Position numbers and translations under genes: made by a program. Below are positions 4,324-11,184 of a DNA stretch of 11,930 bases, in pieces. Below the pieces are notes generated by a model. The model saw only the letters and a list, made by a program, of their open reading frames with translations, searched no databases and had not been told where the DNA came from. Within the stretch, counting starts at the first letter, position 1, and the number at the start of each line of letters is the position of its first letter. Source of the DNA: a virus (Duplodnaviria > Heunggongvirae > Uroviricota > Caudoviricetes); IMG/VR virus record IMGVR_UViG_2548876944_000002; one strand, written 5' to 3'.

Positions 4324-4719
4324 CTATTGCATTCTGGCCAGGCCACGTTCCGTCATTTCGGCTGCCACACCGGCAGAGACACGAAACGCCGTTCCCGGCA
4401 GCACAAATGCCACAGGTTCATCCCGCGTGGCGTGAAGTGCATCGGTATGCAGCGTCACCAGTGCCACGACCGTGACCAGAGCAGCCGTATCAGTCACGGT
4501 ATCCGGCTGCACTGATACCACCTCATTTTCATGTCCGGTCAGCGCATTTTCCGAGTTGACAGATGTATCCTGACCGGCAGCCTCATCCGTGTCATCAAGC
4601 TCCTCTTCCAGCTCTGCCACACGGAGCGCCAGTTCTTCTTTCGTCCCCGTCAGGCTGACATCACGGTTCAGTTGTTCACCCAGCGAACGGAGACGGGCAA
4701 TCAGTTCATCTTTCGTCAT
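4324..4719 (-). CDS. FI: DNA packaging accessory protein gpFI (131 aa here)
   Basis: The track ORF 4324..4758 is an upstream extension. The lambda-matching start is MTKDELIARLRSLGEQLNRDVSLTGTKEELALRVAEL at 4719, preceded by GGAGG (minus strand ...tgtggaggagttcATG). The C-terminal third matches lambda FI; the central linker appears to differ from lambda and the ORF is one codon shorter than I expect. Confidence 0.88.
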   Translation of the reverse strand: MTKDELIARLRSLGEQLNRDVSLTGTKEELALRVAELEEELDDTDEAAGQDTSVNSENALTGHENEVVSVQPDTVTDTAALVTVVALVTLHTDALHATRDEPVAFVLPGTAFRVSAGVAAEMTERGLARMQ

Positions 4720-4740
4720 GAACTCCTCCACAGAGAAACA

Positions 4741-4758
4741 ATGGCCCCGAAGGGCCAT
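4741..4758 (-). other. Stem-loop immediately 3' of the E stop codon: 7-bp perfect stem with a UUCG tetraloop on the mRNA
   Basis: Plus strand atggccc-cgaa-gggccat at 4741-4758; the transcribed strand reads AUGGCCC-UUCG-GGGCCAU. It lies in the 41-nt E-FI intergenic gap, directly upstream of the FI Shine-Dalgarno. Confidence 0.6.
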
Positions 4759-4760
4759 GA

Positions 4761-5786: not shown

Positions 5787-5799
5787 AAAAAAATCCCGT

Positions 5800-5824
5800 A
5801 AAAAAAGCCGCACAGGCGGCCTTT
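5800..5824 (-). terminator. Intrinsic-terminator-like hairpin plus U7 tract in the D-E intergenic region (mRNA sense)
   Basis: Transcribed strand reads AAAG-GCCGC-CUGU-GCGGC-UUUUUUU, then ACGGGAUUUUUUU-AUG (E start). A GC-rich 5-bp core stem, extendable to ~9 bp with A-U pairs and one G-U, is followed by 7 U. Plus-strand core gccgcacaggcggc at 5807-5820, A-run at 5800-5806. Confidence 0.5.
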
Positions 5825-6183: not shown

Positions 6184-6789
6184 TTACACTGGTGTGTTCA
6201 GCAAATCGTTAACGGCATCAGATGCCGGGTTATCTGCAGCCAGCGGTGCCGGTGCACCCTGCATCAGACGATCCAGCGCAGTGTCACTGCGCGCCTGTGC
6301 ACTCTGTGGTGCTGCGGCCAGAATGCGGCGGGCCGTTTCCACGGTCATTCCGGGGGTTTCTGCCAGTACGCGTGCCTGTTCTTCGCGTCCGTGGGCCTCC
6401 TCACAGTTGAGGATCCCCATAATGCGGCTGTTTTCTGCCGCAACCGCTGCGGTGATCTGCGCGTTCACGTCCGGCTGCGCCGCGCTGGCGTTTTCGCCCT
6501 CCTTCGCAGGCTCCACGGTGGTGATGTCAGCCTGCGAAGCAGTGGCTGAAACAGTTGTTGATTGGGTCTCTTTGGTCATTCGCCCTCCTGAGAGACGGGA
6601 TTTACGTGCATCCAGTGCATCACGCATGATGGTGATCGCATCGGTGCTGTTAACAAGTTCATCAGCCAGTCCGGCATCAATGGCCTCCTGACCGCTGTAC
6701 ACTGCAGCCTCGGTATCCTGAACAGCCTGCACGGACAGGCCGGTATATGCCGACACCTTCTGTGCAAACATCCGGCGGGTTGCATCCAT
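6184..6789 (-). CDS. Nu3: Scaffolding protein gpNu3 (201 aa), translated from an internal in-frame start within C and sharing its stop
   Basis: In-frame ATG at 6789 (plus-strand cat 6787-6789); (7503-6789) is divisible by 3. Hand translation gives MDATRR-MFAQKVSAYTGLSVQ..., matching the lambda Nu3 N-terminus. Confidence 0.85.
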   Translation of the reverse strand: MDATRRMFAQKVSAYTGLSVQAVQDTEAAVYSGQEAIDAGLADELVNSTDAITIMRDALDARKSRLSGGRMTKETQSTTVSATASQADITTVEPAKEGENASAAQPDVNAQITAAVAAENSRIMGILNCEEAHGREEQARVLAETPGMTVETARRILAAAPQSAQARSDTALDRLMQGAPAPLAADNPASDAVNDLLNTPV

Positions 6790-7483
6790 CCGGGACTGCA
6801 GTGTCTCCCGGACGTCATCCGGAAGATGGCTGTAGGGGTTGCCATCCACCTTATGGCTGCCGCTGTAAATCAGCGTGATTTCCACGCCCTGTTTCTCCAG
6901 CGCAGCGCCGTAATTACTGTGAGCCATCATGACGCCGATGGAGCCTGTCCGGGCGGTCTGCGTGACCAGACGCCGGGAAGCGGCGCTGGCAAGCAGCTGA
7001 CCTGCACTGCAGTTCATGTCATTGGCCAGCGCCCATACCGGTTTTATGTCACGCACACGGGCGATGATGTCAGCGCAGTCAAATGCCCCCGCCACCATCC
7101 CGCCGGGCGTGTCCATATCGAGCAGAATGCCGTCCACCATCGGATCGCTGGCAGCCTGTTGCAGACGGGCGATAATGCCGTTGTAACCGGTCATCCCCGA
7201 ATACGGCTGCAGCGCCCGCGTCCGGCTGACCAGCGTGCCGGACACCGGCAGCACGGCGATGCCGTTCATGACCTGATAACTGCGGGCCTGTCGTGGTCCG
7301 TCATCATTACCAGATAACGCCAGCGTCGCGGGTGCCTCTCCGACGGTCAGGCTGTCGCCGGACACCGCATCCGTCAGGCGGCTGATCCCAAGCTGGCCGG
7401 CAAGCGCACAAAAGAAAACCCGCGCATAGGCGGGTTCAAGCATCAGCGGCTCATTAAAGGCCATGCTGGCAATATGCGGGAGA

Positions 7484-7503
<20 letters not shown>
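6184..7503 (-). CDS. C: Prohead protease / head maturation protein gpC (439 aa, S49 SppA-like peptidase family), GTG start
   Basis: The track ORF 6184..7638 is a long upstream extension. The lambda-matching start is GTG at 7503 (plus-strand cac 7501-7503), giving (M)TAELRNLPHIASMAFNEPLMLEPAYARVFFCALAGQLGI..., preceded by a strong AGGAGG Shine-Dalgarno (minus strand aacagaggaggagaagaGTG). Overlaps the B 3' end by 20 nt, as in lambda. Confidence 0.93.

Positions 7504-11184
<3,681 letters not shown>

Follow-up and report, generated by a model that had tools for sequence, protein, structure and literature searches.

A conserved, probably selected RNA hairpin between the capsid gene E and FI of a lambda-type phage

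A perfect GC-rich hairpin lies directly after the major capsid gene E of a lambda-type phage, and comparison with its relatives indicates that selection maintains it as an RNA structure of the late transcript; it is neither a DNA palindrome nor a chance repeat. Its structure, strand, position and conservation are direct observations. Its role is assigned tentatively to protection of mRNA 3' ends, by which E-containing fragments of the late message would be prolonged. The window, i.e. the whole stretch of DNA that was analysed, comprises 11,930 nucleotides of a Caudoviricetes record (IMGVR_UViG_2548876944_000002).

The minus strand of the window carries a lambda-type head and tail block, which runs in the ORF list as Nu1, A, W, B, C/Nu3, D, E, FI, FII, Z, U, V, G and T. 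The D-E-FI stretch displays 96.5% identity with lambda (J02459, 6021-7599) and 97.3% with Stx1a-converting phages. Pfam matches were obtained for E (Phage_cap_E, 5.4e-72), FI (Packaging_FI, 2.1e-51), D (HDPD) and FII (Phage_attach). Junctions above 15 nt number only two in the Nu1-to-T block, one of 55 nt between D and E and one of 41 nt between E and FI, and each of them is occupied by a GC-rich hairpin. The genes that follow FI (FII, Z, U, V, G and T) lie on the same strand with gaps of at most 15 nt and without a promoter-like site, and the survey of the Nu1-to-T junctions found no hairpin after the major tail gene V. D and E are the roughly 400-copy head genes; in lambda, about 400 capsid subunits per particle are made from a single 26-kb transcript. 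The features of the E-FI junction and the element of the D-E gap are as follows.

5824-5800, minus strand: D-E gap element AAAGGCCGC-CUGU-GCGGCUUU followed by a U7 run (fold −14.5 kcal/mol, z = −2.1)
5786-4761, minus strand: major capsid gene E (ORF list, Pfam Phage_cap_E)
4763-4761, minus strand: E stop codon UAA (ORF list, sequence)
4760-4720, minus strand: E-FI intergenic gap of 41 nt, reading UC-AUGGCCC-UUCG-GGGCCAU-UGUUUCUCUGUGGAGGAGUUC and then the AUG of FI
4758-4752, minus strand: hairpin 5' arm AUGGCCC (sequence, fold)
4751-4748, minus strand: UUCG tetraloop with a C-G closing pair (fold)
4747-4741, minus strand: hairpin 3' arm GGGCCAU (sequence, fold, covariation counts)
4740-4731, minus strand: pyrimidine-rich tail UGUUUCUCUG, a weak, interrupted U-tract (terminator-like scan, intergenic fold, tail statistics)
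4729-4723, minus strand: FI Shine-Dalgarno sequence GGAGGAG (sequence, fold)
4719-4717, minus strand: FI start codon AUG (sequence, Pfam Packaging_FI)
4719-4324, minus strand: FI gene (Pfam Packaging_FI; matches lambda Fi at 7202-7600)

The two genes flanking the junction differ in their ribosome-binding regions, FI having a perfect 7-nt GGAGGAG (4723-4729, minus strand) as compared to a weak GGGA followed by a U7 spacer for E (5787-5800, minus strand). The E protein is presumably far more abundant than FI.

The sequence-only reading had described a perfect 7-bp inverted repeat with a UUCG loop within 3 nt of the E stop and about 20 nt before FI, and this description is exact: the stem begins 2 nt past the stop codon (UC, 4760-4759), and 21 nt separate its end from the FI start. 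The folding check that it had proposed also bears it out. The isolated hairpin folds with −12.9 kcal/mol (z = −3.23), a value equalled by none of 200 shuffles, so that a stable hairpin stands directly 3' of the more highly expressed cistron. Its loop, C-UUCG-G, is of the C(UNCG)G type with the C-G closing pair. In a 91-nt context the hairpin dominates the centroid structure, the context as a whole being not unusually stable (z = −0.8). An Rfam covariance-model search with E-values up to 10 gave no match at 4720-4760. The hairpin displays no REP consensus, and it is not a multi-copy dispersed palindrome, as evident from the single occurrence of the core motif in the window and the one copy after the capsid stop in each relative examined.

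Taken as a single sequence, the hairpin is only modestly beyond chance and statistically unremarkable. It ranks only in the top 12% of the 50-nt windows of its own locus by energy, and perfect hairpins are not enriched in the window over shuffles: a count of perfect stems that reach 7 bp or more and have a loop of 3-8 nt gives 7 against 5.2 ± 2.4 expected, and 4 against 2.6 ± 1.8 when at least 5 GC pairs are demanded. The core motif with one mismatch is likewise expected about once by chance. These counts would suit a functionless inverted repeat arisen by chance, but that explanation is refuted by positional conservation across clades, covariation of the outer pairs and an invariant core amid diverging flanks, and is barely credible. 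What marks the hairpin as non-random is that it occupies one of the two junctions above 15 nt and is conserved across relatives. Another perfect 7-bp GC-rich inverted repeat, GCGCAGU-GUC-ACUGCGC, lies within the C/Nu3 coding region at 6276-6292.

Conservation was followed in 281 loci that were drawn from genome and viral contig collections and encode E-family capsid proteins; they gave 110 unique downstream sequences. Viral-contig scans that started from lambda E, alone or at the head of a profile, retrieved only relatives of 97-99%; divergent queries reached further. A GC-rich hairpin was observed about 0-36 nt from the capsid stop in nearly all 110 sequences, down to about 40% protein identity. 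The post-stop hairpin falls in the top 5% of the 50-nt windows of its own locus in 16 of 32 representatives (binomial P about 4e-13), and the same rank is held by 12 of the 22 representatives with distinct stems (P about 1e-10). A clear hairpin is absent in about six representatives; among them are L068, L043 (whose hairpin escaped the 50-nt window) and the group at 30% identity. Dozens of lambda E copies of 98-100% identity were also encountered on tiny contigs of about 1x coverage from unrelated taxa (Chromatium, Bradyrhizobium, Paenibacillus, Kitasatospora, Akkermansia and others; L007-L022, L039-L077), and these copies are almost certainly lambda DNA contamination of the assemblies.

Within the enteric clade (86-100% protein identity), the five-pair core GGCCC-N4-GGGCC is invariant in 36 distinct sequences while its flanks vary. 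Pair 6 is U-A in 22 and C-G in 6 of these sequences, and pair 7 is G.U in 13, A-U in 10 and G-C in 4. The covariation score of the 36 sequences is 0.142 as compared to 0.102 for shuffled ones, a value reached by 4 of 500 shuffles, and pairing holds in 87% of the cells, as compared to 55% once the partner is shifted by one column. The wobble cells comprise 14 G.U and no A.C on the late-mRNA strand, which indicates an RNA structure rather than a DNA palindrome. The sequence-only reading had asked whether base pairing would be maintained by compensatory changes in relatives of divergent sequence; it is, both through the exchanges at pairs 6 and 7 and through wholesale turnover of the stem. Pairing, and not sequence, is therefore conserved on the mRNA strand, as evident from the covariation, the stem turnover and the confinement of G.U pairs to the sense strand.

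A DNA-level palindrome, acting as the binding site of a dimeric protein or as a hot spot of recombination or transposition at a mosaic boundary, could account for the invariant 10-nt GGCCC/GGGCC core among variable flanks. It could also account for the end of the nucleotide homology between lambda and N15/phi80 at the E stop, and for an IS4 element inserted exactly in the hairpin of the phage PhiR70_1. However, the 14 G.U pairs of the mRNA strand would be A.C mismatches in the DNA palindrome, distant clades share the hairpin but no sequence, and a preference for UNCG loops is a property of RNA. This explanation is accordingly regarded as highly unlikely.

UNCG-type loops (UUCG, UGCG or UCCG) close the hairpin in 66 of 80 unique enteric-clade sequences, and the extra stability of such loops is RNA-specific. 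The UUCG loop emphasised by the sequence-only reading is thus present here and typical of the enteric relatives, but it is not conserved outside the close clade, the loop being AUUC in N15 and UGUC in phi80. In clades of about 40% identity (Pseudomonas-type and marine), the stems are wholly different, for example AGGCGCGC-UGCG-GCGCGCCU, GGCCCGGC-UCU-GCCGGGCC and CGCCGGGG-CCCG-CCCCGGCG, with further stems of the form AGGCGCAC/GUGCGCCU, GGGUGCCC/GGGCACCC and AAAAAGGGGCGC/GCGCCCCUUUUU. The fraction of unique sequences with at least 5 T in the 8 nt past the stem is 96% in the clade of at least 95% identity, 39% at 85-95% and 5% at 36-45%. The hairpin likewise survives beside downstream genes that are not FI-like. 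Its retention without a U-tract and without an FI-like neighbour suggests that it belongs to the 3' end of the capsid cistron and that terminator features are not needed.

Orthologous stem-loops are present in N15 (NC_001901, 7053-7073) and phi80 (FN582354, 7221-7245), both of them annotated as putative rho-independent terminators. Like the hairpin of the window, they lie between an E-type capsid gene and an FI gene and have a 7-bp stem with the GGCCC...GGGCC core (theirs being GUGGCCC/GGGCCAC). They differ from it in a G-C rather than an A-U closing pair, in a start at least 9 nt rather than 2 nt past the stop, and in the loops given above. In the lambda reference, HK629 and mEp237 records the E-FI hairpin carries no annotation, and a search of the open-access literature found nothing on the hairpin or mentioning its sequence. 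In phi80 (FN582354; L004 2320-2365), a tandem duplication before the hairpin repeats the final ~16 nt of the capsid gene with its stop (CGTCAAACTGGCATAA) and has lengthened the intergenic gap to 70 nt.

These annotations bear upon partial intrinsic (rho-independent) termination, whereby a fraction of the polymerases would stop after E and reduce the transcription of FI, FII and the tail genes, or polymerases lacking Q modification would be halted so that the late genes stay silent without Q. A consensus terminator scan flags the hairpin for its 7-bp stem with 5 GC pairs, its 4-nt loop and its tail UGUUUCUCUG. Strong U-tracts stand right after the stem in some relatives (L277, L269 and L070), one further relative (L062) has a perfect A5-stem-U5 terminator, and a terminator right after the capsid gene is recognised in T7-like phages (PMC10134795). 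The U-tract of the window is, however, broken by a G at position 2 (U-G-UUU-C-U-C-U) and passes only a loose scan with 5 U in 8 nt, and the distant clades keep the hairpin with the rarity of T-rich tails noted above. The hairpin does not end a transcription unit but lies within the late operon, where all downstream essential genes need read-through and where, in lambda, late transcription is Q-antiterminated. The same operon tolerates a much stronger D-E terminator and an IS4-borne one, and in HK629 and mEp237 it is the D-E hairpin, not the E-FI hairpin, that was annotated as a terminator. Partial termination as the main role is possible on this evidence and the strongest rival to a decay barrier, though on the whole unlikely; decay barrier and (partial) termination are not mutually exclusive.

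Situated in mid-operon among essential genes, the D-E hairpin has the canonical build of an intrinsic terminator (A-tract, 6-bp GC stem, U7), and the HK629, N15 and mEp237 records list it as a rho-independent terminator. The phi80 record has a promoter and a transcription start annotated in the equivalent gap instead. The D-E and E-FI hairpins belong to the same operon and the same class, each following a roughly 400-copy head gene, but the full U7 and A-tract of the former contrast with the lack of a proper U-tract in the latter. The sequence-only reading held that the two hairpins bracket the D-E block. This is wrong, since the other hairpin lies between D and E (5824-5800); the pair flanks E alone, or each member follows one high-copy gene.

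Two more hairpins were noted on the minus strand of the window. A perfect 8-bp hairpin, CCCGCAGA-GCCUGUU-UCUGCGGG, is located near the end of gene G (1813-1835), and its 3' arm overlaps the slippery sequence GGGAAAG of the G-T programmed frameshift, the structure being upstream of and overlapping the slip site and not downstream of it. A terminator-like hairpin, GAACCCGCC-UAUGCG-CGGGUUU followed by UCUUUUG, is located at 7416-7437, about 47 nt past the stop of the portal gene B and inside the opening ~30 codons of gene C.

The IS4 insertion (transposase InsG) of PhiR70_1 (PV340577.1) lies inside the E-FI hairpin and is accompanied by a 12-bp target-site duplication, GGCCCTTCGGGG.

L311 2340-2440 and L312 50-160 / 1480-1540: IS4-disrupted E-FI junction of PhiR70_1

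The hairpin copy beside E is destroyed, its remnant (−7.2 kcal/mol) being no better than shuffles, and a 5-bp core copy is left upstream of FI. Between E and FI, some 65 nt past the E stop, IS4 contributes a hairpin of its own (−21 kcal/mol) with a U7 run. PhiR70_1 comes from a panel of lambda relatives that form plaques, so FI and all the tail genes must still be expressed. Together with the D-E terminator, the IS4-borne hairpin indicates that transcription of this operon passes through hairpins of the terminator kind. The E-FI site is moreover a tolerated insertion point, which may interest phage engineers.

A further rival is a translational device, in which hairpin and pyrimidine tract would shape the FI ribosome-binding region, either by masking the Shine-Dalgarno sequence until a ribosome terminating at E melts the structure (coupling) or by insulating FI initiation from E termination. 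In the intergenic fold, UUUCUC (4738-4733) pairs weakly with GAGGAG (4728-4723) of the FI Shine-Dalgarno sequence, and in N15-type relatives an outer helix pairs the post-stop CUUCC with its GGAG. Hairpin and FI start keep a spacing of 17-28 nt, and in the lambda clade the stem is near enough to the E stop to be reached by a ribosome that terminates there. However, the predicted unpaired probability of the Shine-Dalgarno sequence is inconsistent, ranging from 0.02 to 0.77 (0.22 in the window, 0.56 in canonical lambda), and a pyrimidine tract pairs with any purine-rich Shine-Dalgarno sequence, so that this pairing carries little weight. The hairpin also persists beside a different downstream gene, and it may begin anywhere from 0 to about 36 nt past the stop, a latitude more in keeping with a 3' barrier than with a device positioned by the ribosome. 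Conserved masking of the FI Shine-Dalgarno sequence was given up because of the variable pairing probabilities and kept as a minor rival only, and a translational device is improbable as a whole.

It is more improbable still that the invariant GGCCC-UNCG-GGGCC core actively sets the E:FI ratio, either as an operator recognised in a sequence-specific way by an RNA-binding factor of phage or host (e.g. in feedback by gpE or gpFI) or as a coupler of E termination to FI initiation. An N-terminal extension of FI from the AUG of the 5' arm (ORF 4324..4758, 144 codons) was also considered, this AUG being in frame with FI here and in several length classes. The frame is a coincidence, since the hairpin-to-FI-start distance in this comparison takes all values from 31 to 42 nt and all residue classes modulo 3; many relatives, besides, have no start codon in the 5' arm.

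A 3'-to-5' exonuclease barrier that prolongs E-containing mRNA fragments is preferred over termination as the role of the E-FI hairpin, and the preference is a tentative one. Barrier and partial terminator, the roles proposed by the sequence-only reading, are the natural class for such a hairpin on the late-mRNA strand. Lambdoid late transcription is carried out by a Q-modified, terminator-resistant RNA polymerase. Because of this polymerase, and because all the downstream head-completion and tail genes are on the same transcript, the hairpin would mostly be read through. The long late mRNA would then be cut, in the manner of RNase E, in the single-stranded U-rich stretch downstream of the hairpin, which would stop 3'-to-5' exonucleases after the cut. 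E-containing fragments may consequently outlive the downstream message and yield some extra capsid protein. Termination of non-antiterminated polymerases, or of a small fraction of late ones, would be secondary.

A post-transcriptional role is favoured because the U-tract is not conserved and the downstream essential genes need read-through. The build of the hairpin, an all-GC core with a UNCG tetraloop, is that of E. coli intrinsic-terminator hairpins but with a degenerate U-tract. Counting against the exonuclease barrier are the 5 T in the 8 nt of the tail and the relatives with UUUUCUUUCU and UUUUUUCUUU, which look like terminators too. In lambda, moreover, the stem begins so close to the stop that every terminating ribosome must melt it, and PhiR70_1 forms plaques with its E-side hairpin destroyed, although IS4 gives a substitute 65 nt downstream.

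The sequence-only reading went further and supposed that tuning at the RNA level sets head-protein stoichiometry, with FI acting in small amounts. The relative expression of the lambda late genes is reportedly attributed to translation initiation, to judge from the title of Sampson et al. 1988; this speaks against the supposition and limits how much an RNA-level effect can matter. A low level of FI also fits poorly with its perfect, strong Shine-Dalgarno sequence GGAGGAG. The size of the protection effect, and of any effect on stoichiometry, is probably modest. If the decay barrier is real, it would add a small post-transcriptional layer to lambda capsid production, atop the established control by translation initiation, and it would explain why hairpins persist after capsid genes even where termination is impossible.

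Among known systems, T7 has the T-phi terminator after gene 10. In T7-like phages, e.g. LUZ100, a terminator just 3' of the major capsid gene is a recognised motif (PMC10134795). The likeness to T7 and LUZ100 lies in a stable hairpin that ends the most highly expressed structural gene, with partial read-through serving the downstream virion genes. The difference is that theirs are proven terminators with mapped 3' ends, facing a phage-type single-subunit RNA polymerase, whereas the E-FI hairpin faces the Q-modified host polymerase, has a weak U-tract and is at most a putative terminator. A hairpin after a major capsid gene being a familiar motif, no new question is opened by it; the E-FI hairpin is already known in kind, and in instance through its annotated orthologues.

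The malE-malF REP, Rhodobacter puf and E. coli papBA elements are intercistronic, mRNA-stabilising stem-loops of polycistronic operons. They are thought to stop 3' exonucleases after endonucleolytic cleavage and so to create segment-specific stabilities within one transcript, and it is this mechanism that is proposed for the E-FI hairpin. Unlike the malE-malF REP, the E-FI hairpin is present in a single copy and lacks the REP consensus; like the elements of all three operons, it is a GC-rich hairpin that follows the more abundant upstream product.
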